DNA of 64,000 nucleotides from Candidatus Jorgensenbacteria bacterium GW2011_GWB1_50_10 (GCA_001004105.1 LCQK01000002.1:347-64346), one strand, 5' to 3'; shown: positions 1,646-53,549, counted from the stretch's first letter. Program-made: numbers and translations. Notes: generated from the sequence alone by a model not told the origin.

Positions 1646-3751
1646 ATGCCAAGACAGTATCCCATTGAAAAAGTCCGTGATATCGGAATAATCGCCCACA
1701 TTGATGCCGGGAAGACCACCGTTTCGGAACGGGTACTTTTCTACACCGGCGTCTCCCACAAAATCGGCGAGGTGCACGAGGGTGACACGGTGATGGACTG
1801 GATGGAACAGGAGCGGGAGCGCGGCATCACTATCACTTCGGCCGCGACCACCTGTTTTTGGACGCCGACTTACCGGGAGGGTGACAAGAATTTCGAGCAC
1901 CGCATCAACTTGATTGACACGCCCGGCCACATCGATTTCACCGTTGAAGTGAAGCGCAGTTTGCGCGTTTTGGACGGCGCGGTCGTGGTTTTTGATGGAG
2001 TCGCGGGCGTTGAGCCGCAATCGGAAACGAACTGGCACTACGCCGACGAATACAAGGTGCCGCGCTTATGTTTCATCAATAAACTTGACCGGACGGGCGC
2101 GAGTTTTGACAATAGTTACAGATCAATTTTGGAGCGGCTCACTCCCAACGCCGTTCTTCTTCAGATTCCCATCGGTCTGGAAAACCATTTTGAAGGCGTG
2201 ATTGATCTTTTGACGCGCCACGCCTTCCGCTTTGAAGGCGATAAAGGTGAGAAGACGGTTGGCGGCGAGGTTCCCGACAATCTTAAGGATGAAGTTGAAA
2301 AACAAAGGCATCATCTCATTGAAAAAATCGTCGAGCACGATGACGGAGCGATGCATGAATATCTGGGAGGCGGGGAGCCGGCTTTGGATAAATTAAAAGC
2401 GGTTTTACGCAAGGCGACGATCGGAAACGCTCTGGTGCCGGTGCTCTGCGGTTCGGCCCTGAAAAACAAGGGCGTCCAACTTGTGCTCGATGCGGTGGTG
2501 GACTATCTGCCCTCGCCCGCCGATCTGCCGCCGGTCAAAGGCATTAATCCCGAAACTCACGGTGAGGAGGAAAGGAAACCGAGTGACAATGAACCGCTCT
2601 CCGCACTCGCTTTTAAAATCGCCTCCGACCCTTTTGTGGGAACGCTCACTTTTTTCCGCGTTTACTCCGGTATCATGAAGCGCGGTAGCTATATTTTGAA
2701 TTCAACCAAAGGGGGACAGGAGCGAATCGGGAGAATTCTCCGGATGCACGCCAATCACCGGGAAGAAGCGGAGGAAATTTACGCGGGCGATTTGGGAGCG
2801 CTCGTGGGCCTCAAGGATACGACAACGGGCGATACATTAACTGACCCGGAGCATCCGGTTGTTTTGGAGCAAATCACTTTCCCCGAACCGGTTATCTCCG
2901 TTAGGATTGAGCCCAAGACCAAAGTTGACCAGGAAAGAATGGGCATCGCTCTCCGCCGTTTGGCGGAAGAAGACCCAACTTTCCGGCTTCGCGGAGACAT
3001 CGAAACGGGCGAGACTATCATCTCCGGTATGGGCGAACTGCATTTGGAAATTATCGTTGACCGGATGAAGCGGGAATTCAAAGTGGAAGCGAACGTCGGC
3101 CGGCCCCAGGTTGCTTACAAGGAAACCGTGAAGGGCACGGCGGAGGCCGAGGGCAAATATATTCGGCAGTCGGGCGGCCGGGGCCAGTACGGTCACGTCT
3201 GGCTTCGCTTAGAACCGATGGAACGAGGGCAGGGCTTTGAGTTCGTCGATGCCATCAAAGGCGGCATCATTCCCCAGGAATTCATCCCGGCCGCCGAAAA
3301 AGGCGTTCACGAAGCGGTGGATAAAGGCGTGCTCGCCGGTTACCCGGTCGTGGACGTGAAGGTCACCCTCTACGACGGTTCTTATCACGAAGTGGACTCC
3401 TCGGAAATCGCTTTCAAAATCGCCTCCGCCATGGCTTTTCAAGAGGCGGCCAGGCGCGCCAAAACAGTTCTTCTTGAACCGATAATGAAAGTGCAGGTCA
3501 TCGTCCCGCCAGATTTTTTGGGCGACGTGACCGGGGATTTGAGTTCCAAGCGAGGTAAGATAAAAGCCATGGGCGAGCGGGGAACGGTCCGCACCATCGA
3601 CGCGCTTGTCCCGCTCTCGGAAATGTTCGGCTATTCGACGACCTTGCGGAGTATGACCGAAGGCCGCGGCTCTTTCACGATGGAGTTTTCTCATTACGAA
3701 GAAGTGCCGGCCTCCGTCGCAACGGCAATAATTGAAGGGAAAAAGAAATAA
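1646..3751 (+). CDS. fusA: Elongation factor G
   Basis: GTPase G1 motif AHIDAGKTT, 701 aa, str-operon position. Confidence 0.95.
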
Positions 3752-3923: not shown

Positions 3924-5123
3924 ATGGCAGAAAAAGAAAAATTTCAGCGAACTAAGCCCCACGTTAACGTGGGCACCATCGGTCACGTGGACCACGGCAA
4001 GACCACTCTTACCGCGGCAATTACCCACGTGCTCTTCATGAAAGGTCTTACCAAGAAAGAGGAAGGCGTTGACCAGATCGACAACGCGCCCGAGGAAAAG
4101 GCGCGGGGCATCACCATCGCCTTACACCACTCCGAGTACGAGTCAGAGAAGCGCCACTATGCGCACATTGATGCGCCGGGCCACGCCGATTACATCAAGA
4201 ACATGATTACCGGCGCCGCTCAAATGGATGGCGCGGTTCTCGTCGTTTCCGCGGCTGACGGTCCGATGCCGCAGACCCGGGAGCACATTTTGCTTGCCCG
4301 CCAGGTCGGCGTGCCGGCGATCGTCGTTTTCTTGAACAAAGTGGACATGGTTGACGACAAGGAACTCGTTGACTTAGTGGAATCGGAGGTCCGCGAGCTT
4401 TTGAAGAAGTACGAATTTCCCGGCGATGAAATCCCGGTCATCCGCGGCTCGGCCTTGAAGGCCTTGGAAGCGAAATCGGCCGATGACGAAGCGGCCAAAC
4501 CAATCTTGGATTTGGTGAAAGCTTTGGACGATCACATTCCGGAGCCGGTTCGGGAAACCGATAAACCGTTCCTTATGCCCGTTGAAGATATTTTCTCCAT
4601 TGAGGGCCGCGGCACGGTGGTTACCGGCCGGGCCGAGCGGGGTATTCTTAAAGTGAACGAAGAAGTGGAAATCGTTGGCTTAAAGCCGACGCAGAAGACC
4701 GTCGTGACCGGCGTTGAAATGTTCCAGAAGATTTTGGACGAAGCGCGGGCCGGCGACAACGTCGGTATCCTCCTTCGCGGCCTTAAAAAAGAAGACGTGG
4801 AGCGCGGCCAGGTGATTGCAAAGCCCGGCAGCGTCACGCCACACACTGAATTCGATTGCGAGGTCTACGTCCTCTCTAAAGAGGAAGGCGGCCGGCACAC
4901 GCCGTTCTTTAAGGGTTACAAGCCACAGTTCTATATAAGGACCACGGACGTGACGGGAGAAGTCATTTTGCCCGAAGGAATTGAAATGGTGATGCCGGGC
5001 GACACGATTAAAATTTCCGTTAAGCTCATCTCGCCGGTCGCGCTTGAAGAGAAACAGCGGTTCGCCATCCGCGAGGGCGGCAAGACAGTTGGCGCCGGCG
5101 TCGTCACGAAAATTAATAAATAA
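3924..5123 (+). CDS. tuf: Elongation factor Tu
   Basis: [18 protein letters not shown] and NKVD GTPase motifs; 399 aa. Confidence 0.96.
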
Positions 5124-5158
5124 GTCCTATCAGTCCCACCGGACCTATCAGAGAATGT

Positions 5159-5491
5159 ATGCCGAAAGCATCTGAGCAAGTTCAAAAAGAGAAATTAAGA
5201 TTGCGCATCAGAGCGTACGACGCCAAACTCATTGATTCGTCCTCAAGGCAAATCATTGAGGCTATCCGGCGTCAGGGCGGGGAAGTTGTTGGTCCCATTC
5301 CCTTACCGACCGAGATTCGGCGCTACACCGTGAACCGCTCCACTTTCGTGCACAAGAAATCCCGGGAGCAGTTCGAAATGAGGGTGCACAAGCGCCTGAT
5401 AGATATATTGAATCCCGGTCAAAAAATCATCGAATCTTTGACGGACCTGAACCTCCCCGGCGGAGTTGACGTGGAAATCAAAACTGGTTAG
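5159..5491 (+). CDS. rpsJ: 30S ribosomal protein S10
   Basis: S10 sequence (IRIRAYD...VHKKSREQFE); ends with a TAG stop. Confidence 0.95.
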   Translation: MPKASEQVQKEKLRLRIRAYDAKLIDSSSRQIIEAIRRQGGEVVGPIPLPTEIRRYTVNRSTFVHKKSREQFEMRVHKRLIDILNPGQKIIESLTDLNLPGGVDVEIKTG

Positions 5492-15328: not shown

Positions 15329-15522
15329 ACCTTTTCTTCCCCACGCCAGACGGCTTCGGCTCGGGCGATTTCGTCCCGCTTCGGCGGGACTCAACCCTTC
15401 GCTCGCTTTAGATTCGGTGATATGATGCGTCATATCACCGAATAGCTCGCTCATCCACGACTGCGGTCGGGACTCCGCCGAAGAGTTGAGGGGTAAGTCT
15501 GGCTTTGGGGAAGAAAAGGTTT
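15325..15522. repeat. Composite ~200-nt palindromic element. Its 22-bp terminal inverted repeats are derived from the 26-nt family-B motif. It contains a perfect GTCCCGC-TTCG-GCGGGAC hairpin and a central 13-bp-stem hairpin (TTCGGTGATATGA-TGCG-TCATATCACCGAA).
   Basis: 5' arm AAACCTTTTCTTCCCCACGCCAGAC at 15327-15351 overlaps the secY stop. Its reverse complement lies at 15497-15522. Confidence 0.6.
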
Positions 15523-15552
15523 TTAGCTTGTGTAATTTGGATAAAAAACGCC

Positions 15553-15590
15553 CCGCGACGAACTGTGTCGCGGGGGTGTTGCTTGTTCGG
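15553..15590 (-). terminator. Hairpin CCCCGCGAC-N7-GTCGCGGGG with a T-run on the - strand; likely terminator of the - strand ORF 15595..15858
   Basis: 9-bp GC stem. The reverse-complement flank is CGTTTTTTATCC. Confidence 0.45.
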
Positions 15591-15594
15591 TGCG

Positions 15595-15858
15595 TCAGAG
15601 AGCTACCGCTAAGCCGCCCTCCACTCGGATGGGGCCGAAGCCGTTGATCGCCCGTAGCCAGGTCTTGTCATCATTGACTCGGACCCACAACCACGGAAGC
15701 ACCGTTGGGGTGTAGCGCCACCAGCGTTGGCCGCAAGGGCACGTGAAGAAATTCATTTCGTCGTGTGCGAATGGGTCTTGGTCTTCGTCCGGGTGTACGA
15801 AAGGCCAACGGGAGCTGCTTGCTTCAACTTCTTGGCACCGGCAGTTAGTATTGGGCAT
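15595..15858 (-). CDS. Small Cys/Trp-rich hypothetical protein (CxC...CPC) inserted between secY and adk
   Basis: 87-aa ORF with an AAGGAG Shine-Dalgarno sequence 7 nt upstream, its own terminator, and GC-rich composition. Confidence 0.4.
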   Translation of the reverse strand: MPNTNCRCQEVEASSSRWPFVHPDEDQDPFAHDEMNFFTCPCGQRWWRYTPTVLPWLWVRVNDDKTWLRAINGFGPIRVEGGLAVAL

Positions 15859-15936
15859 CAGTGCTCCTTTTGGTGTGTGGTCAAAATCTATTGGTCAACT
15901 TGAAACACAATATTATAATTCAGTTTTTTAGTCAAT

Positions 15937-17472: not shown

Positions 17473-17496
17473 GTCAGTATGACATGTCATACTGAC
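17473..17496. promoter_or_regulatory. Perfect 24-nt palindrome GTCAGTATGACATGTCATACTGAC, 2 nt from the 3' end of the TrpR-like gene
   Basis: Perfect dyad, seen directly in the sequence. Confidence 0.5.
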
Positions 17497-17498
17497 TA

Positions 17499-17951
17499 TC
17501 ACAACGAAGGGTGCAGGTAGACTTTCCCGTACTTGGTGCGTCGGTATCTTCGATAGGGTTTCTTTTTGGAAGGGTGGCGGCTCCATACTTTCTTTTTCCG
17601 CTCTGTTTTACCTCGTTCCCGGTAGCTCTTGTAATTCCTTTCTTTGATAGCTTTTCTTATGCTATTTATGGTTTGCCGGGAAATTAGGAGTCCTCTTGAG
17701 ATTTGCTGCGGCCTCTTCCCTGAATTTACAAATTCTGCCACCGCGGCGCGCATGACTATATTGCGGCGCTCATTGGCGGTGACGAGTGTTTCCAAAAATT
17801 TTCCGGATTTGGTTATTCTGTCCCAGCAAGCTTTCTCCCAATCTTTACGTGAAGAATATTCACTTCTCGGCGGCAATAAGAACGAACCCGCGCCCATATT
17901 GTTGATTTTAGCCATAAACAAGTTAAGTTTAACATATTTAATGTATGACAT
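17499..17951 (-). CDS. TrpR/YerC/YecD-like helix-turn-helix protein
   Basis: The block ANERRNIVMRAAVAEFV..GKRPQQISRGLLISRQTINSIRKAI fits the TrpR-like HTH pattern. The start codon is the centre of a palindrome. Confidence 0.5.
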   Translation of the reverse strand: MSYIKYVKLNLFMAKINNMGAGSFLLPPRSEYSSRKDWEKACWDRITKSGKFLETLVTANERRNIVMRAAVAEFVNSGKRPQQISRGLLISRQTINSIRKAIKERNYKSYRERGKTERKKKVWSRHPSKKKPYRRYRRTKYGKVYLHPSL

Positions 17952-17958
17952 GTCATAC
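17943..17958. promoter_or_regulatory. Perfect 16-nt palindrome GTATGACATGTCATAC overlapping the start codon of the TrpR-like gene
   Basis: Same core as the 17473-17496 palindrome. Confidence 0.5.
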
Positions 17959-18796: not shown

Positions 18797-18824
18797 ATTC
18801 GCCAATTCGCGCGAATTGGCGAAT
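18797..18824. repeat. Perfect 28-nt palindrome ATTCGCCAATTCGC|GCGAATTGGCGAAT
   Basis: Seen directly. Its core TTCGCGCGAA is shared with the palindrome at 42696-42731. Confidence 0.5.
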
Positions 18825-19241
18825 AGTCGCTTTTACCGTTCCGGGAACTTTCCGGGATGGGGTTGGTGGGGGGTTATTAAGCAGTTGGATTTTTGGTTTT
18901 ATTTCTAATATAAATAGATTGACGGTCGTCGGTTAAGTCCGACCTCTGGGTTATGGGTAGCTTGGAATCTGCCCGTTATCAACGAGACCGCCTTCTGCCC
19001 CCATTACCCCGGTTGCGGGGTTATAATCCGAGGAAATCTCCGTCCAAAGGAAAACAAAGGGGAATCGGAGCTCTCAATCGGCCAAGCGATAGAGGGGTAG
19101 CCTAACGCCTTGGTCCAGAAAATCGGACCAAGGCGTTGCTCATTTTCATTTCATCGGGCCGGCGTTTTGGGTTTTTAAAATGCGAACAGCCCCGAAAATT
19201 TCTCGGGGCCGTTTGGCGCAGTAACTGCTCCGTCGCGGGGT

Positions 19242-19532
19242 TCAAAAGAGCAGTTCTTTTACTAGTTGGTCGTTCTGGGCGACCATGATTTTGTTACCTT
19301 GGGCGCGCTCGTCGAGCAGGTGCTCGTAGATGCGAAGGGCGTTGCGTACTAATTCGGCGAAAGTGATGGCATCAGATTTTGCCTTGACGTCTTTCAAGCG
19401 CTTGTAGGTTTCATTTGAAAACTGGAACTGCAACCGATGCCCCGCCGACCGTCCTTTTCGAGCCCTTTTCATTATTAGCTCCCGTGATTTGTGTGCCAAA
19501 TCCAGCGTGCCACAGGTTCTTTTAAGAGTCAA
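19242..19532 (-). CDS. Ribbon-helix-helix (CopG/Arc-like) DNA-binding protein
   Basis: Block HRLQFQFSNETYKRLKDVKAKSDAITFAELVRNALRIY resembles an RHH fold; the start is probably the internal Met. Confidence 0.4.
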   Translation of the reverse strand: MTLKRTCGTLDLAHKSRELIMKRARKGRSAGHRLQFQFSNETYKRLKDVKAKSDAITFAELVRNALRIYEHLLDERAQGNKIMVAQNDQLVKELLF

Positions 19533-19578
19533 ATAAATGAACCTTCAACACTAGAAATTTTATAAATTTCCATACTAA

Positions 19579-19812
19579 CTAAGAAGTGGTCTCAATTTTA
19601 ATAAAATCTATTTTATATTGACGTTCTTTAGATGGGTCAAGATGAATTCCTGAATAAGTCCATCCTGGAATATCAGCAACAAAGCTAGTAACTTCTTTAC
19701 AATCAAATGTCGCGACAATAAAATCATCCTTTGGGTTAGGAAAAATAATATTAGTACAACCCATTTTCTCTAAAGCCTCTTTAATTTTCATTAAGATATC
19801 GTTTTTATCCAT
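19579..19812 (-). CDS. Hypothetical small protein (AT-rich island)
   Basis: 77-aa ORF immediately downstream of the ClpP-like gene; about 33% GC. Confidence 0.4.
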   Translation of the reverse strand: MDKNDILMKIKEALEKMGCTNIIFPNPKDDFIVATFDCKEVTSFVADIPGWTYSGIHLDPSKERQYKIDFIKIETTS

Positions 19813-19817
19813 ATTTT

Positions 19818-20363
19818 TTAGTTAATAATTACTATATCTTCTCTTAATACTCCTTTCGGTGGTATTTCTAGATGATTGATGGCTTGCACAATCCCACATT
19901 GAAGTGCTTGTTGTGCAGTAATACTTGTTCCGGTTTTCATCATGTTTTGAACTTTTTGAAGATCTAAACTGCAATTCTCGGAAATAAAATAAGCTATACG
20001 AGTACTCTCTGTTTTTACTGCTAAAAGTTGTTCATTAAGTCCCTTCTCGTCAAATATACCTTGTGTTGTCGCTCCATGCATATAGAATTTTGCATAAGAT
20101 TCTGCCGTTCTCTCTTTTGCGGAAAGATATATCACATTCGCAATAGAATCAATATTATTAGTAGCATGGATAGAAATGGGAATTTTGCAATTTTGAATAA
20201 CAGAAGCTAACGTGAATCCTTCCTGCGTACTCCCTCCTAATGAAGAAAACAATAAAATAATTTTTTTAGCACCTTGTTGAGTAGCGTTATTAACTGCGTT
20301 TAGCAATCTATTACCAAAACCCTGTTCAATTATCCCAGCGAAAACGATATAATAATCCATCAC
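19818..20363 (-). CDS. ClpP/crotonase-fold serine-protease-like protein (S14/S49 class)
   Basis: Aligns by eye to ClpP: LLFSSLGGS against the ClpP SPGGS block, a TNNIDS Ser position, and a FYMHGA His position. AT-rich. Confidence 0.55.
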   Translation of the reverse strand: MMDYYIVFAGIIEQGFGNRLLNAVNNATQQGAKKIILLFSSLGGSTQEGFTLASVIQNCKIPISIHATNNIDSIANVIYLSAKERTAESYAKFYMHGATTQGIFDEKGLNEQLLAVKTESTRIAYFISENCSLDLQKVQNMMKTGTSITAQQALQCGIVQAINHLEIPPKGVLREDIVIIN

Positions 20364-20409
20364 GGTTAAATTATATGTATAAATTTATTTTAAAGATACC
20401 CAACCTTCT

Positions 20410-20787
20410 TCAACTCTTAACAGCAATCATACTTATCTCAACCCGGGCGCCGAGGGGGAGTTCCTTGACGCAAACCGTTTCGCGGGCGGGGAATGGCTCC
20501 GACATATAGCTTCCGTACACTTCATTCACCTCGCCGTAAAGAGATATATCGGTTACGTAAATCGTAGTTTTGACCACATCCTTAAATGACACCCTAGCCG
20601 CCTCAAGAATCGCTTGCAAATTTTTCATTGCTTGGTGAGTTTGTTCTTCAATGCTCCCCTCAAGTGGTTTCCCCTCCGGCGTTAAGTGTACCTGTCCTGA
20701 AGTAAAAACCATATTGCCGTCTACAACCGCCTGCGAGAAAGGACCAGTTGCTTTTGGGGCTTTTGGAGTTTCAATTTTTTTCTTCAT
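20410..20787 (-). CDS. ridA: RidA/YjgF family reactive-intermediate deaminase
   Basis: 125 aa with conserved YjgF blocks (GPFSQAV..G...F.SGQ). Confidence 0.85.
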   Translation of the reverse strand: MKKKIETPKAPKATGPFSQAVVDGNMVFTSGQVHLTPEGKPLEGSIEEQTHQAMKNLQAILEAARVSFKDVVKTTIYVTDISLYGEVNEVYGSYMSEPFPARETVCVKELPLGARVEISMIAVKS

Positions 20788-20798
20788 TGAGAAATTTT

Positions 20799-21236
20799 TT
20801 AAAAGACTTTGCTGCTGATTTCAATTTTCACTCCCTTGATATAATTTTCTATTGATTTATGAACCCCTAATTTCATAGCTTCCTCCGGTGATTTCCAAAA
20901 GAATTCCTTAAGTTCTCTATCATCCAGTTTTACATCATCCGTCAGCGCTTCGCAGAGAACATGGAAATATACGAGGTGGGCTTTTCTATGAAAAGCGGGG
21001 TCATTAATCAGTTCTCCAATATTCACGCAATAGAGGGGCTTAAGTTTCAGTCCTGTTTCTTCTTCACCCTCTCTTTTTGCGGCCTCTAAAATTGTTTCGC
21101 CGAGCTCCACATGTCCTCCGGGGAGAAGATATTTCTCACCCCATTTGTGTGATTTTATGAGTAGAACTTTTTTCTCTCTATTCACAATAAGTGCAGAAGC
21201 AACCACCTCAGCATAATTGTAATTTTTAGGTGTCAT
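20799..21236 (-). CDS. NUDIX hydrolase
   Basis: Nudix box GGHVELGETILEAAKREGEEETG. The start is trimmed to the internal Met to avoid overlap with the upstream gene. Confidence 0.8.
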   Translation of the reverse strand: MTPKNYNYAEVVASALIVNREKKVLLIKSHKWGEKYLLPGGHVELGETILEAAKREGEEETGLKLKPLYCVNIGELINDPAFHRKAHLVYFHVLCEALTDDVKLDDRELKEFFWKSPEEAMKLGVHKSIENYIKGVKIEISSKVF

Positions 21237-21260
21237 GTTTAGAGATATTAGATTGATTAT

Positions 21261-21286
21261 ATAAACCTTTTCTTTTCTAAGCCAGA
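21261..21286 (+). repeat. 26-nt family-B motif ATAAACCTTTTCTTTTCTAAGCCAGA
   Basis: Identical to the copy at 58570-58595. About 25 nt upstream (on the - strand) of the NUDIX start. Confidence 0.6.
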
Positions 21287-21304
21287 TTTTGAAATAGTGG
21301 GGGA

Positions 21305-22093
21305 TTATCTTCTGATAATAAAATAAAACCCCGGGTATACCATTCCATGGAGACCCTTCTGCGGCTCTTTGCTCTCCAATTGGTTGTTGATTTCCCAATC
21401 ATGAGTCATCGCGTAATGCAAACCGACAAGACCATCCTCGGCCGGAGGATTTTCGCAATAATAACCGTCAACTTGGTCGGAAAGAAGCGTAACCTTGGCT
21501 CCAAAACCGAGTGATAGTTCCTTACCGTTTATAAATTTGTAGCCGCGCTTTTCAATTTCTTGCCACATAGCTTCGGGTATCTTTTTGATTGGGTCGCCGT
21601 ACGGGTAAGTAATGATCTTATTTCCGTTTGCTGAAAGATTCAGCGTTGGCCGTTTTCCGGATTCTTGGTGCTCCTTGCCGATAAATTTGTGAGTCCAGTC
21701 CATTGCCGGGTAGTGGTCAAAGGTGTATAGAGGCAGGCCGTCTTTCTGAATGCTAATAATTAGGCTGTAAATCGGCTCACGGGCGGCATAGCGATACGTC
21801 CCGTCAATTGGGTCTACTGTCAGTAAAAATTCCCCTTCCGGGTCAAATTTGTCCACCAAATCTGTTTTTTCTTCGGCAATCAGACGGCATTGAATAAGCT
21901 CCGTTTTGCTGATGGCGGACAATACCGCTTCTTGAACTGCAAAGTCCGCTTCGGTAACCACGTCAACCTCATCGATTCCCGTACTCTTCTTTTTCTTAGG
22001 AGATATTTCCCGCTGCATCTTCACGGCAATTTTACCCGCCTCAATAAAGGCGGGTTCTAATTTCTTAATCGTTTCTAGATAACTCTCAATCAT
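21305..22093 (-). CDS. Inositol monophosphatase family protein (SuhB/CysQ-like)
   Basis: DPIDGT motif; 262 aa. Confidence 0.82.
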   Translation of the reverse strand: MIESYLETIKKLEPAFIEAGKIAVKMQREISPKKKKSTGIDEVDVVTEADFAVQEAVLSAISKTELIQCRLIAEEKTDLVDKFDPEGEFLLTVDPIDGTYRYAAREPIYSLIISIQKDGLPLYTFDHYPAMDWTHKFIGKEHQESGKRPTLNLSANGNKIITYPYGDPIKKIPEAMWQEIEKRGYKFINGKELSLGFGAKVTLLSDQVDGYYCENPPAEDGLVGLHYAMTHDWEINNQLESKEPQKGLHGMVYPGFYFIIRR

Positions 22094-22102
22094 TTTTCAA
22101 TT

Positions 22103-22128
22103 ATAAACTTTTTCTTTCCTAAGCCAGA
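22103..22128 (+). repeat. 26-nt family-B motif variant ATAAACTTTTTCTTTCCTAAGCCAGA
   Basis: 2 substitutions relative to the 21261 copy. 10 nt upstream (on the - strand) of the IMPase-family start. Confidence 0.6.
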
Positions 22129-22233
22129 CACAATTTAAAACTATTGACAAATAACGTAATTTTTGATTCTATTTAAGACAGTTATTTCTGCAGCCGTGCA
22201 AGGCGGCCCCGGCCTCGGGCAGAGGCGAATTTT

Positions 22234-26160: not shown

Positions 26161-27201
26161 ATGGATAATCTGCTTATCATAGCCGTATTTGTCCTTGCTG
26201 CCGCCGTAGCAGCGCTCTTATGGTTTATTTTCAAGCGTGGTGGCGCCGGCGGCGACAATCAGTCGATGCTAATGCTTCAGCAGCAATTAAATAACCTCAA
26301 CCGCACTATTGATTCCAAAATCGGCGAATCAACGAAAGCGATGCAGCGGCAGTTCGGCGAGAGCGCGAAAATCATCCGCGACGTGACGGAGCGCCTGACG
26401 CGGCTCGATGAAACGAACAAACAGGTGGTGAATTTCGCCGACCAGCTGAAATCCCTGCAGGATATCCTGAAAAATCCGAAACAGCGCGGGGTTTTGGGAG
26501 AGTATTATCTGGAGACGGTTTTGAAAAACGTGATGCCGCCGGGCACTTACCAGATGCAGTACGAGTTCAAGGACGGCACAATCGTGGATGCGGTGGTTTT
26601 CGTCAAAGAAAAAATCATTCCAATTGATTCCAAGTTCAGCTTGGAAAATTACAATCGTCTCATTGCTACTCGCGATGACGCCGAGAAAAAGCGGTTGGAA
26701 GAGGCGTTTCGGAGCGATTTGAAAACCAGGATTGACGAGACTTCAAAATACATCAAGCCGGGGGAGAACACGATGGATTTCGCTTTCATGTTCATTCCGG
26801 CCGAGGCCGTTTATTACGATTTACTCATCAACAAAGTCGGTTCGGTTGAGGCGCGGGATTTGATTGAATACGCCATAGTGGATAAAAAAGTGATTGTGGT
26901 CTCGCCGACCTCGTTTCTCGCGTATCTTCAAACCGTGCTTCAGGGTTTGAAAGCGCTCCAGATTGAAGAGTCGGCTAAGGAAATCAGAAAAAGAGTGGAA
27001 GAGTTGGGCCGGCACTTGGGCAGTTACGAAACCTACATGAAGAAATTGGGGACGCACTTGGGCACCACGGTTAATATGTATAACAGCGCTTCCAAAGAAC
27101 TCGGCAAAATTGACAAGGACGTTTTGCGCATCAGCGGTCGGGCCGCCGGTATTGAACCAATAAGCATTGATGGACCGAGAAGCGCAGACGAAACGGAATA
27201 A
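26161..27201 (+). CDS. rmuC: DNA recombination protein RmuC
   Basis: N-terminal TM, coiled coil, and the conserved RmuC C-terminal block DFAFMFIPAEAVY. Confidence 0.82.
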   Translation: MDNLLIIAVFVLAAAVAALLWFIFKRGGAGGDNQSMLMLQQQLNNLNRTIDSKIGESTKAMQRQFGESAKIIRDVTERLTRLDETNKQVVNFADQLKSLQDILKNPKQRGVLGEYYLETVLKNVMPPGTYQMQYEFKDGTIVDAVVFVKEKIIPIDSKFSLENYNRLIATRDDAEKKRLEEAFRSDLKTRIDETSKYIKPGENTMDFAFMFIPAEAVYYDLLINKVGSVEARDLIEYAIVDKKVIVVSPTSFLAYLQTVLQGLKALQIEESAKEIRKRVEELGRHLGSYETYMKKLGTHLGTTVNMYNSASKELGKIDKDVLRISGRAAGIEPISIDGPRSADETE

Positions 27202-27922
27202 GTTGCTGGAAAAGAAATGGCGGAAGTTTTTGCGCCTCCGGCCGGTTTTTTCGTTCATTCCTTTTCTGGATTTCGTGATTGTTTCGGGTTCTTTAGCCAC
27301 CGGTAACGTTCACGAGAATTCGGATTTTGACGTAATTGTGGGCGCGCGAAAAGGTAAGATTTTCACGGTGCGGGCTTTCTGCGTTTTCGTTTTCGGGATT
27401 TTAGGCCTGCGGCGGCGGGGGATAGACCACAAAGCAGCGTCCAGCGATAAAGTTTGTTTCAATCACTTCGTGACACCGAAGGCCTATCGGCTTTCGCCGC
27501 CCTACAACGATTACTGGGTGAAGCTTTACCAGAATCTCGTGCCGGTTTATGGCAGAGAAAAGGCGGTAAGGGATTTTTTCCGGGCTAACGATTGGGCACT
27601 GCCTGCCGGCAGGCAGGGGCCACGCGAGACAATTTTCAGCGAAAAGTACTGGCAGAGCACAAACCCCAATCCTGCAGGTGGTATACATATGTATACCACC
27701 TGGATTTTAAAGACTTTCTTTGAGTTTGTTTTGCAGGGCTGGATCTTGGGCCGGGTTTTTGAAAAGTTCGTGAAAATCATAGAGCTCCATTACATCAAAA
27801 AGGGAATCAAGAACGGCGCTTTGGGTTTCAAGCCGCGCGTCCGCTACGGCGACGACGAATTGGAATTTCACCCCGACACCGCCCGGATTGAGGAGATGCT
27901 CAAAGAGGACTTGCGTTTTTAG
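27167..27922 (+). CDS. Nucleotidyltransferase-domain protein (Pol-beta-like NTase fold)
   Basis: Motif GSLATG(N5)SDFDVIV followed by a downstream acidic residue; 35-nt overlap with rmuC. Confidence 0.55.
   Translation: MMDREAQTKRNKLLEKKWRKFLRLRPVFSFIPFLDFVIVSGSLATGNVHENSDFDVIVGARKGKIFTVRAFCVFVFGILGLRRRGIDHKAASSDKVCFNHFVTPKAYRLSPPYNDYWVKLYQNLVPVYGREKAVRDFFRANDWALPAGRQGPRETIFSEKYWQSTNPNPAGGIHMYTTWILKTFFEFVLQGWILGRVFEKFVKIIELHYIKKGIKNGALGFKPRVRYGDDELEFHPDTARIEEMLKEDLRF
27674..27701. repeat. Perfect 28-nt palindrome CAGGTGGTATACAT|ATGTATACCACCTG (family C) inside the NTase CDS
   Basis: Core GGTGGTATACATATGTATACCACC is identical to the copy at 40495-40518. Confidence 0.7.
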
Positions 27923-40451: not shown

Positions 40452-40487
40452 TAACTAAAAATTCAGCAACTAAGAATTTAGTGACTA

Positions 40488-40528
40488 AAACCAAGGTGGT
40501 ATACATATGTATACCACCTTGGTTTTTT
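40488..40528 (+). terminator. Family-C palindrome AAACCAAGGTGGTATACA|TATGTATACCACCTTGGTTT followed by TTTTT; rho-independent terminator
   Basis: 18-bp stem followed by a T-run, after the DUF1653 gene. Confidence 0.6.
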
Positions 40529-40601: not shown

Positions 40602-40970
40602 CTAGGAGTGCAGGGAACTCCAGCGGCCTCGGCCGTAGGAAGCGGGGTATTTTTGAAATTTATTCCTTTTAGGAAATTTTGAGTAAATTTTCTTTTTATA
40701 ATTGAGTTTTTTCAGGCCGCGCTTGATGAAAATCACGGTTTTTCTCGCGACGTCAGCTTTCTTGCTAGTTTCTCTCAAGCTTTCACCCTGCTTCAGGAAA
40801 TAAAGAGCAGCCAATCTTTTTTCCAAAATGACTTTTTCTTCTTCGGTTAGGAATTTTGAAAGAAAATCCGCCGGGCCGGATTTCTTGGATTTTTCAACCT
40901 CGGCCCAGAAAATTTTCCAAATCTCCTTTCTCAATCCCTCGCTAAAATTTTTCCTATTAGTTCTCGGCAT
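40602..40970 (-). CDS. TrpR/YerC/YecD-like helix-turn-helix protein
   Basis: Block EEEKVILEKRLAALYFLKQGESLRETSKKADVARKTV. The start is set at the internal Met; the listed ORF extends to 41024. Confidence 0.55.
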   Translation of the reverse strand: MPRTNRKNFSEGLRKEIWKIFWAEVEKSKKSGPADFLSKFLTEEEKVILEKRLAALYFLKQGESLRETSKKADVARKTVIFIKRGLKKLNYKKKIYSKFPKRNKFQKYPASYGRGRWSSLHS

Positions 40971-40972
40971 GG

Positions 40973-40996
40973 GTGGTATACTTAAGTATACCACCG
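40973..40996. promoter_or_regulatory. Family-C palindrome variant GGTGGTATACTTAAGTATACCACC, abutting the start of the TrpR-like gene
   Basis: Perfect 24-nt dyad, 2 nt from the ATG. Confidence 0.5.
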
Positions 40997-42694: not shown

Positions 42695-42695
42695 T

Positions 42696-42731
42696 AACTA
42701 TTTTCTTATTCGCGCGAATAAGAAAATAGTT
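42696..42731. repeat. Perfect 36-nt palindrome AACTATTTTCTTATTCGC|GCGAATAAGAAAATAGTT immediately after the rluD stop
   Basis: Seen directly; a T-run follows 10 nt later. Confidence 0.5.
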
Positions 42732-42773
42732 AGAATTTGACTTTTTTATCCAAGAAATTATCATTACTCCATA

Positions 42774-53512: not shown

Positions 53513-53517
53513 GCAAC

Positions 53518-53549
53518 TCCATTTATGGACGACCGTCCATAAATGGAGT
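53518..53549. terminator. Bidirectional terminator palindrome CTCCATTTATGGACG-AC-CGTCCATAAATGGAG
   Basis: Lies between convergent gatB and miaA. Confidence 0.55.

Follow-up and report, generated by a model that had tools for sequence, protein, structure and literature searches.

A TrpR-fold regulator gene bracketed by two copies of its predicted palindromic operator in Candidatus Jorgensenbacteria

Why should a small regulator gene carry an exact palindrome at each of its ends? The question is raised by a 64,000-nt stretch of contig UY26_C0003 of Candidatus Jorgensenbacteria bacterium GW2011_GWB1_50_10 (GCA_001004105.1 LCQK01000002.1:347-64346), referred to here as the window, in which the minus-strand open reading frame (ORF) 17499..17951, encoding protein UY26_C0003G0013, lies between two perfect palindromes with a common core. 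The reading that we prefer, and to which we give a probability of roughly two in three, is that the gene encodes a putative autorepressed regulator, belonging to a lineage-specific family with dispersed cognate sites. Comparison of homologous loci supports well the proposed combination of a TrpR-fold protein, a cognate palindrome and autorepression via the upstream copy, and what is seen in the window is one local example of an architecture conserved throughout the lineage.

The two palindromes with a shared core reported in a preliminary description of this DNA can be read directly in the sequence, and the repeat common to both is 17 nt long (coordinates are collected in Table 1). The downstream copy GTCAGTATGACATGTCATACTGAC is separated by 2 nt from the TGA stop codon (17499-17501, plus strand) and sits between the regulator gene and the convergent map gene. 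The upstream copy GTATGACATGTCATAC, the predicted operator, is a 16-mer that occurs exactly twice in the window; when up to three mismatches are allowed, 0.05 matches are expected from 100 shuffles, none of which reached the observed count. The CATG centre of this 16-mer contains the first ATG (17951..17949) of the longest ORF, which had been proposed as the start codon of the gene. This ATG is where it was said to be, but it is located upstream of the predicted -10 and hence is unlikely to be the start codon; in addition, homologues begin later, their amino-termini falling near residues 13-19 of the window protein, and the 89%-identical orthologue P0002 begins with MAKTNN at the position of M13. 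The regulator is likely to start at ATG 17915..17913 (M13) or at 17897..17895 (M19), and that an ATG falls in the middle of the palindrome is probably fortuitous, its centre being CATG. No known RNA family and no tRNA gene was found near or between the palindromes; the window has only tRNA-Ile and tRNA-Leu, which are located elsewhere.

The bracket is conserved. Twenty-six usable homologous loci were fetched from one-genome-per-species contigs and their flanks were searched for palindromes; in 23 of them the core TATGAC-RY-GTCATA, or a close variant, is present on both sides of the gene. The bracketed loci come from Jorgensen-, Wolfe-, Lipton- and Brennerbacteria and from other Paceibacterota. 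In most loci the upstream palindrome is centred about 28-61 nt ahead of the start codon (about 100-125 nt in loci L002, L020 and L023) and the downstream palindrome 12-80 nt past the stop codon (155 nt in L016). Under a strict test, which asks for a palindrome with perfect arms of 7 nt or more on either side of the gene and for a 12-mer common to the two, 24 of 36 family genes are bracketed versus 6 of 599 other ORFs of the same DNA, and the family genes that fail are mostly near-matches. The gene neighbourhood varies between genomes, with no conserved synteny apart from close relatives; the gene for a cysteine-rich protein, 'c1', is the one recurrent neighbour.

The upstream copy has a defined relation to a predicted promoter. 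With the loci aligned on the palindrome centre, the extended -10 motif TGnTAnnnT (for example TGGTAAAAT, TGATACACT or TGCTATAAT) is found on the gene side only, 13-17 nt from the centre of the upstream palindrome in about 15 loci (mostly 13-14 nt, and 16 nt in the window, where it reads TGTTAAACT). Beside other copies of the palindrome, solo or downstream, it is present at 2 of about 93, the chance rate, and no promoter motif accompanies the downstream copies of the aligned loci. Because the extended -10 is at a fixed distance, the upstream palindrome spans about -21 to -36 in the aligned loci; in the window its centre is at about -31, counted from the predicted transcription start. ATGACA, the half farther from the gene, resembles a -35 element. 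The palindrome overlaps the predicted core promoter of its own gene, as it does among homologues, and with respect to this promoter it occupies the classical repressor position. In L008 and L009 just 6 nt lie between the -10 and the ATG, and leaderless mRNAs are therefore likely. Identical RNA hairpins at both ends of the mRNA were considered as well and rejected, since the upstream copy precedes the -10 and would be outside the transcript.

These observations fit the autoregulated cassette that had been suggested for this gene, and a mechanism can be proposed. A small dimeric TrpR-fold DNA-binding protein, of a family apparently restricted to Paceibacteria-type bacteria of the Candidate Phyla Radiation (CPR), would bind the upstream copy, which overlaps the -35 region of the predicted extended -10 promoter of its own gene, and would exclude RNA polymerase. 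The resulting negative autoregulation is suggested by the position of the site and by its conservation among the loci compared.

The assignment of the protein itself comes from several searches. The window protein matches the Pfam family PF01371 (Trp_repressor) with 22.1 bits, below the gathering score of 27, and most of 78 homologues carry a precomputed PF01371 domain. A profile of 70 family members matches PDB entry 3kor ('possible Trp repressor') with an E-value of 8e-6, and TrpR is the best structural match of the window protein, whose model contains the helical core and helix-turn-helix of the TrpR fold. The helix-turn-helix, TrpR-like assignment therefore holds at the superfamily level, and protein modelling, which had been proposed as a check, recovers the expected fold. 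The part of the preliminary description that does not stand is the specific likeness to YerC: against TIGR02531, the YerC/YecD (HisR) equivalog, the protein scores 16.8 with a cut-off of 42.2, and its predicted operator differs from the published motifs (PMC9413887). A match to PDB entry 8vd6 ('CAP REPEAT', E 1e-8) was discarded as uninformative, the entry being a designed repeat protein of helix-turn-helix-like units (PMC12339374). Specific to the family is a strongly conserved basic tail of 40 residues (YRSYRERGKTERKKK ... RTKYGKVYLP), which in the structure model consists of a short helix, a low-confidence linker and a beta-hairpin. The family is a small one, with 345 cluster representatives at E ≤ 0.001 among 1.8 billion searched. 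Its named source organisms are Paceibacteria-type CPR bacteria, except for contig L012, labelled Spirochaetia, which we read as mis-binning. A phage origin was rejected: no family gene is present in viral contigs (2.9 million searched), and the 16-mer CTATGACRYGTCATAG occurs there just 5 times, which is the chance level.

The operators of HisR and TrpR are cacTTTAn6TAAAgtg and TGTAcTnGTnnACnAgTACA, respectively, and about half of the hisR genes are preceded by a site of their own, pointing to autoregulation (PMC9413887). In the window family, as in these PF01371 regulators, the predicted operator is palindromic and a site is present at the gene itself. However, the palindrome TATGAC-RY-GTCATA is unlike either operator, the conserved basic tail is an addition, amino-acid biosynthesis genes are absent near the window gene (its neighbours are map, adk and hypothetical genes) and there is a second site past the stop codon; from HisR, the window protein also differs by falling below the equivalog cut-off.

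Proteins and palindromes vary together. Within each locus the upstream and downstream copies are the same variant, and the distribution of variants agrees with the protein tree. In genome WY2.bin82, three paralogues (L019, L020 and L023) go with three variants (GCTATGAC-AT, GTTATGAC-GC and GCTATGC-TATA). The genome under study, for which our counts cover 84 kb, also has three of each: GTATGAC-AT at the 17499 gene, GATATGAC-GC at P0012 (L027) and GGTGGTATAC-N4-GTATACCACC at the gene 40602..40970. At the first specificity position of the recognition helix, proteins paired with TATGAC and TATGC cores have Q and those paired with TATCAT and CTACAG have N, whereas GTATAC goes with K and CTCTGT with D; the tail reads YRSY-R-ERGK with TATGAC cores and YRSY-W-ERGK with TATGC-TATR-GCATA cores. 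Of the indirect evidence for a recognition of the palindromes by these proteins, we regard this covariation, seen at the level of sequence, as the strongest; the window protein would most likely recognise (GGTG)nTATGAC-RY-GTCATAn(CACC). Sites of one paralogue are also found near the gene of the other, with a P0012-type site at window 15412-15443 and a window-gene-type site at L027 12194-12217. The former is a solo copy inside the secY-adk spacer (15329-15936), which is unusually long at about 600 nt and also holds a minus-strand ORF (15595..15858) of 87 amino acids, containing cysteine and without a Pfam match.

The distant paralogue 40602..40970 had been described as having a different dyad family at its start. 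The family is indeed different, but the dyad is present on both sides of the gene, and a third copy is located inside another ORF of the window (Table 1). The upstream palindrome itself includes an extended -10, TGGTATACT, and this -10, within a palindrome 1 nt from the ATG, predicts a leaderless or nearly leaderless mRNA; the downstream palindrome looks like a bidirectional terminator. Homologues of this protein (L085-L088) are bracketed alike, with an upstream copy that lies 0-11 nt from the ATG and contains TGGTATACT. The pattern of two regulators with two dyad families is borne out and turns out to be more general, with one variant per paralogue in this genome and in WY2.bin82. In L047 (1699-2388) a PaaX-like regulator gene (1750..2319) is bracketed by two copies of another perfect palindrome, of 36-38 nt (TTATCACATGAGCGCGCGACCGCGCGCTCATGTGATAA); genes outside the TrpR-like family can thus have the bracket design as well.

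Table 1. Positions of the regulator genes, their palindromes and related copies (window coordinates unless a locus is named).
Feature	Sequence	Position	Strand	Remarks
Downstream palindrome copy	GTCAGTATGACATGTCATACTGAC	17473..17496	.	perfect 24-mer, 12-nt perfect arms
Regulator coding sequence		17499..17915	-	138 aa from M13; TrpR-fold helix-turn-helix and basic C-terminal tail (predicted)
Extended -10 of regulator gene (predicted)	TGTTAAACT	17926..17934 (17934..17926)	-	10 nt upstream of M13 ATG
Upstream palindrome copy, predicted operator	GTATGACATGTCATAC	17943..17958	.	perfect 16-mer
Bracket of second family-1 paralogue P0012	...GATATGACGCGTCATATC...	L027 9953-9984 and 10384-10407
P0012-type site	GGTGATATGACGCGTCATATCACC
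Solo palindrome, P0012 type	ATTCGGTGATATGATGCGTCATATCACCGAAT	15412..15443	.	secY-adk spacer
Distant paralogue		40602..40970	-	122 aa, 27% identical, same TrpR-like superfamily
Upstream palindrome of distant paralogue	GGTGGTATACTTAAGTATACCACC	40972..40995	.	1 nt before ATG (40970..40968)
Downstream palindrome of distant paralogue	AAAACCAAGGTGGTATACATATGTATACCACCTTGGTTTT	40487..40526	.	20-nt perfect arms, A and T tracts; between convergent genes
Third palindrome of this type	GGTGGTATAC...GTATACCACC	27675..27702	.	in frame inside nucleotidyltransferase-like ORF 27167..27922
In-frame exact palindromes (SecA, CysRS, TatD and DNA_alkylation genes)		L034 2885-2910, L060 4542-4565, L061 3205-3228, L003 1690-1783, L038 1801-1867

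What the second copy does is the weakest step of the proposed mechanism. Its place immediately behind the stop codon is constant and suggests a function at the boundary, as terminator, roadblock or insulator, and it would be a second predicted binding site marking the 3' boundary of the unit. The window copy can probably also fold as the terminator hairpin of the gene: 17496..17473 scores terminator-like on the minus strand in a terminator scan (tail ATAATTTATC), and its RNA hairpin has a folding energy of -17.7 kcal/mol (z -3.1). It is also possible that this copy is an auxiliary operator, which would loop to the promoter site about 466 bp away. LacI (O1/O2), GalR (OE/OI) and DeoR combine a promoter operator with another, identical copy of the site at a distance of a few hundred bp, inside the transcribed region or past it, and the window family resembles them in having such a pair of predicted sites. 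In contrast to these repressors, the family invariably has its second site shortly after the stop codon, and a loop would therefore enclose the whole regulator gene; there is no sign of tetramerisation or of helical phasing. Downstream of the family gene in L002 (994-1290), two tandem units are present, each made up of a palindrome, a spacer of about 60 nt and a remnant of about 20 codons of the 3' end of the gene (...HGRPVRTKYGTV...). Unequal recombination between flanking copies would yield such units; gene remnants between multiple palindromes occur in L002 alone and are absent from L003, L009 and L021.

A hairpin at the end of the gene raises the question of whether the palindromes are mainly RNA or DNA hairpins, used everywhere as gene-end punctuation (bidirectional terminators, mRNA stabilisers), with the regulator merely located between the terminator of the preceding gene and its own. 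Long perfect palindromes of several unrelated families are indeed found at convergent junctions or after stop codons in the window (18797, 22840, 27999, 40487, 42695 and 53516), the downstream copy passes the terminator scan and the outer arms keep their symmetry without conservation of sequence. We nevertheless consider this explanation distinctly improbable. It does not account for the same 14-nt core flanking one gene family in many lineages, for the covariation of core and protein, or for the fixed distance to the -10. The upstream copy in the window lies between divergent genes and upstream of the -10, outside the transcripts of any promoter identified there. Moreover, the arms show no G.U-type tolerance, copies are present inside essential genes and 98 of the 120 sites classified below have no T tail.

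Copies of the palindrome are not confined to regulator genes. A metagenome scan with the pattern GGTGnTATGACRYGTCATAnCACC gave 56 stretches, about 4 of which contain a family gene, while 52 of the 56 have none nearby. That the palindromes might prove widespread without a link to this gene family had been named as a possible objection, and this is half the case: solo copies are widespread, but the link holds (24/36 versus 6/599 in the strict test). Classification of 120 non-redundant core sites places 57 between co-directional genes, where they tend to be closer to the preceding stop codon than to the following start, 21 between convergent genes, 14 between divergent genes, 17 inside ORFs and 11 at a contig end. 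The density in the 84 kb covered of the genome under study is about one site per 25 kb per family, with about three copies of each variant in this DNA, and different palindromes cluster together in L041, L073 and L042. In-frame copies are present within the genes for SecA, CysRS, TatD (which has two) and a DNA_alkylation protein, all of them certainly genuine, as Pfam domains flank the palindromes at either end. These palindromes are 24-34 bp long, all are located in linkers and they are always read in one frame, resulting in G-G-M-T-R/C-H-T-T-like peptides. The SecA copy, absent from the SecA of the window, is at an identical site in two diverged orthologues, which indicates vertical inheritance.

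Palindromes inside coding genes are also known from Rickettsia, where the Rickettsia palindromic elements are in-frame selfish palindromes of 100-150 bp. The likeness is that palindromes are tolerated in frame in variable loops of housekeeping proteins (here SecA, CysRS and TatD). The copies described here differ in being short and exact and in always encoding the same type of peptide; we know of no cognate gene flanked by the Rickettsia elements.

As an arrangement, and by analogy, the bracket most resembles repetitive extragenic palindromic (REP) elements and the genes of REP-associated tyrosine transposases (RAYTs). RAYTs are IS200/IS605-related HUH/Y1 tyrosine transposases, their genes are flanked on both sides by dispersed short palindromes, with one repeat family per paralogue, and REPs, which are located at gene 3' ends and in clusters, are palindromes of imperfect symmetry headed by GTAG or CGTC, usually in more than 100 copies (PMC2817692, PMC3116915). 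The palindromes of the window family could likewise be dispersed, proliferating elements, the TrpR-like protein a domesticated element-binding partner that maintains, spreads or exploits them, and the bracket the equivalent of a 'REPtron', not primarily regulatory. The many solo copies, the copies at gene 3' ends, the clusters of different palindromes, similar to bacterial interspersed mosaic elements (BIMEs), and the in-frame copies all agree with this, as do the cognate repeat family of each paralogue, flanking its gene as in RAYTs (PMC2817692), the variable gene context, the tandem units with gene-end remnants in L002 and a weak similarity of the protein to the helix-turn-helix of IS630 transposase (E 0.002). 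However, the protein is a helix-turn-helix protein in which profile and structure searches found no match to a catalytic domain, including HUH/Y1 (Y1_Tnp). The palindromes are exact, have no GTAG or CGTC head and are much less dense than REPs, and some are in frame inside genes. They have neither fixed boundaries nor target duplications, their outer arms varying by site; the SecA copy has stayed at one site in two diverged orthologues, and the upstream copy has a clear promoter-operator geometry. We judge an origin of the bracket in such elements unlikely.

Insertion of the gene as a cassette is a further explanation for a repeat on each side. The cassette would be moved by site-specific recombination at the palindrome (compare integron attC sites, or dif modules and Xer), and, once inserted into a solo palindrome, it would be flanked by a copy at either end. 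In line with this, the gene lies between two copies of a site also found in solo form; the position of the regulator relative to adk-map differs between two Jorgensenbacteria genomes, the family gene of L007 being itself directly upstream of adk-map; and other genes are occasionally bracketed (a nitroreductase gene in L042, a c1 gene in L031). Nevertheless, a recombinase gene is next to none of the loci, and the family is absent from viral contigs. A crossover should give outer arms that do not match, whereas each copy is symmetric in itself and has arms unlike those of its partner (L012, L013 and L010), so the palindromes are not chimeric as in integron cassettes or dif modules. Mobilisation of this type is very improbable, and the suggestion of a tiny mobile unit, made when the locus was first described, is not upheld in spite of the variable neighbourhood and the L002 remnants.

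The preferred reading, an autorepressed regulator with dispersed cognate sites, has to be weighed against four points. First, the solo sites are mostly away from promoters, which is unusual for a plain repressor regulon. Second, a T-rich tail (5 or more T among the 8 nt next to the palindrome, at either end) accompanies just 22 of the 120 sites, and a classical terminator role is therefore not general. Third, our arithmetic on the coordinates finds no helical phasing of the two copies, which are spaced 457-587 bp apart across loci, or of tandem upstream copies, so looping is without specific support. Finally, recognition by a protein accounts for the shared core but not for exact symmetry with site-specific, abruptly ending outer arms. 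Every paralogue has a variant to itself, which is also found in solo sites, and the proteins therefore probably act at many places, with gene ends, intercistronic gaps and positions next to the arrays of genes for a cysteine-rich protein as probable sites of action.

The exact symmetry merits description. Through the centre, 115 of the 120 sites are exact palindromes. Their arms are 7-22 nt long, with a mode of 12 that is set by the 24-nt scan pattern, the source of about half of the sites. Outside the shared motif, every site has outer arms of its own sequence that are nonetheless exactly symmetric; by our arithmetic the arms extend with each further step in about 65-75% of cases, versus 25% by chance. 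The pairing ends at the first mismatch, continuing for at least 3 bp in just 5 of 118 sites. Selection acting on RNA hairpins would leave room for G.U pairs and bulges, unlike what is seen in these arms. We infer that a symmetrising process at the DNA level, such as hairpin-templated correction or template switching, may be behind the exact arms.

Taken further, this leads to a more speculative possibility, a punctuation system of Paceibacteria not described before. Several palindrome families of 24-40 bp, exactly symmetric, would make it up; every family would have a TrpR-fold protein to itself, the gene of which is bracketed by two copies as in a REPtron without transposase. Their symmetry would stem from a DNA-level process such as hairpin-templated correction, and by spreading they would have reached gene ends and, in frame, the interior of essential genes. 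The proteins would use them as genome-wide boundary, roadblock or terminator marks. We think this rather unlikely as a whole.

Several further features were observed around these loci. The c1 protein has about 580 residues and is cysteine-rich, without a Pfam domain and with the amino-terminus CQNCK...PPPTWCPECR. Its gene adjoins the family gene in about 10 of 27 loci (L027 10449-13991, L004, L005, L020, L029, L031, L063 and L065), often as tandem arrays with palindromes in between, and c1 is a candidate target of the regulators. The nitroreductase gene of L042 is located between two family-1 palindromes (4641-5421; also in L052, L058 and L069), one of which overlaps another variant (GCTATGCTATAGCATAGC). 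About 1.3 kb from the regulator gene, the window contains a low-GC island (19200-22200, 0.32-0.43 versus about 0.52), probably acquired DNA, with ClpP/NfeD-like, RidA-like, NUDIX and inositol-monophosphatase-like genes, all on the minus strand.

Other palindrome families are present too. One, with the core (A)ATTCGCGCGAAT(T), is found at window 18797-18824 and 42695-42732 and at L027 16505-16532, just past stop codons or at convergent junctions; a gene cognate to it was not found. A 34-nt palindrome, ACTCCATTTATGGACGACCGTCCATAAATGGAGT, is located between convergent genes at window 53516-53549, and a similar one lies beside a family-1 site in L084 (607-640). The palindrome CCTGCCTGCCGGCAGGCAGG and longer forms of it recur in many metagenome loci (L030 284-323, L033, L034, L042, L057, L060 and others), as do families centred on CACGATCGTG or GCGATCGC, and GGTGCTACAGTTAACTGTAGCACC; these genomes contain many palindrome families.

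Our literature search on palindromes in CPR bacteria and on TrpR-like regulators in Patescibacteria found nothing relevant and no paper describing this system. To our knowledge, almost nothing is known about gene regulation in the CPR/Patescibacteria, which cannot be grown alone. An autoregulated helix-turn-helix repressor is known in kind; there is a minority chance that the locus represents a new type of system in which dispersed palindromes have a partner protein. The predicted pair of regulator and site is directly testable, with a binding code that can be read from the covariation, and it is conserved over several candidate phyla, with several orthogonal paralogues per genome. The exact palindromes in SecA, CysRS and TatD provide a clean natural case for the origin and persistence of palindromes in coding DNA. 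Should the dispersed copies be functional boundary marks, or a self-propagating family, they would represent a new way for a reduced genome to organise its transcription, and a second example of the logic of REPs and RAYTs, built on a different protein.
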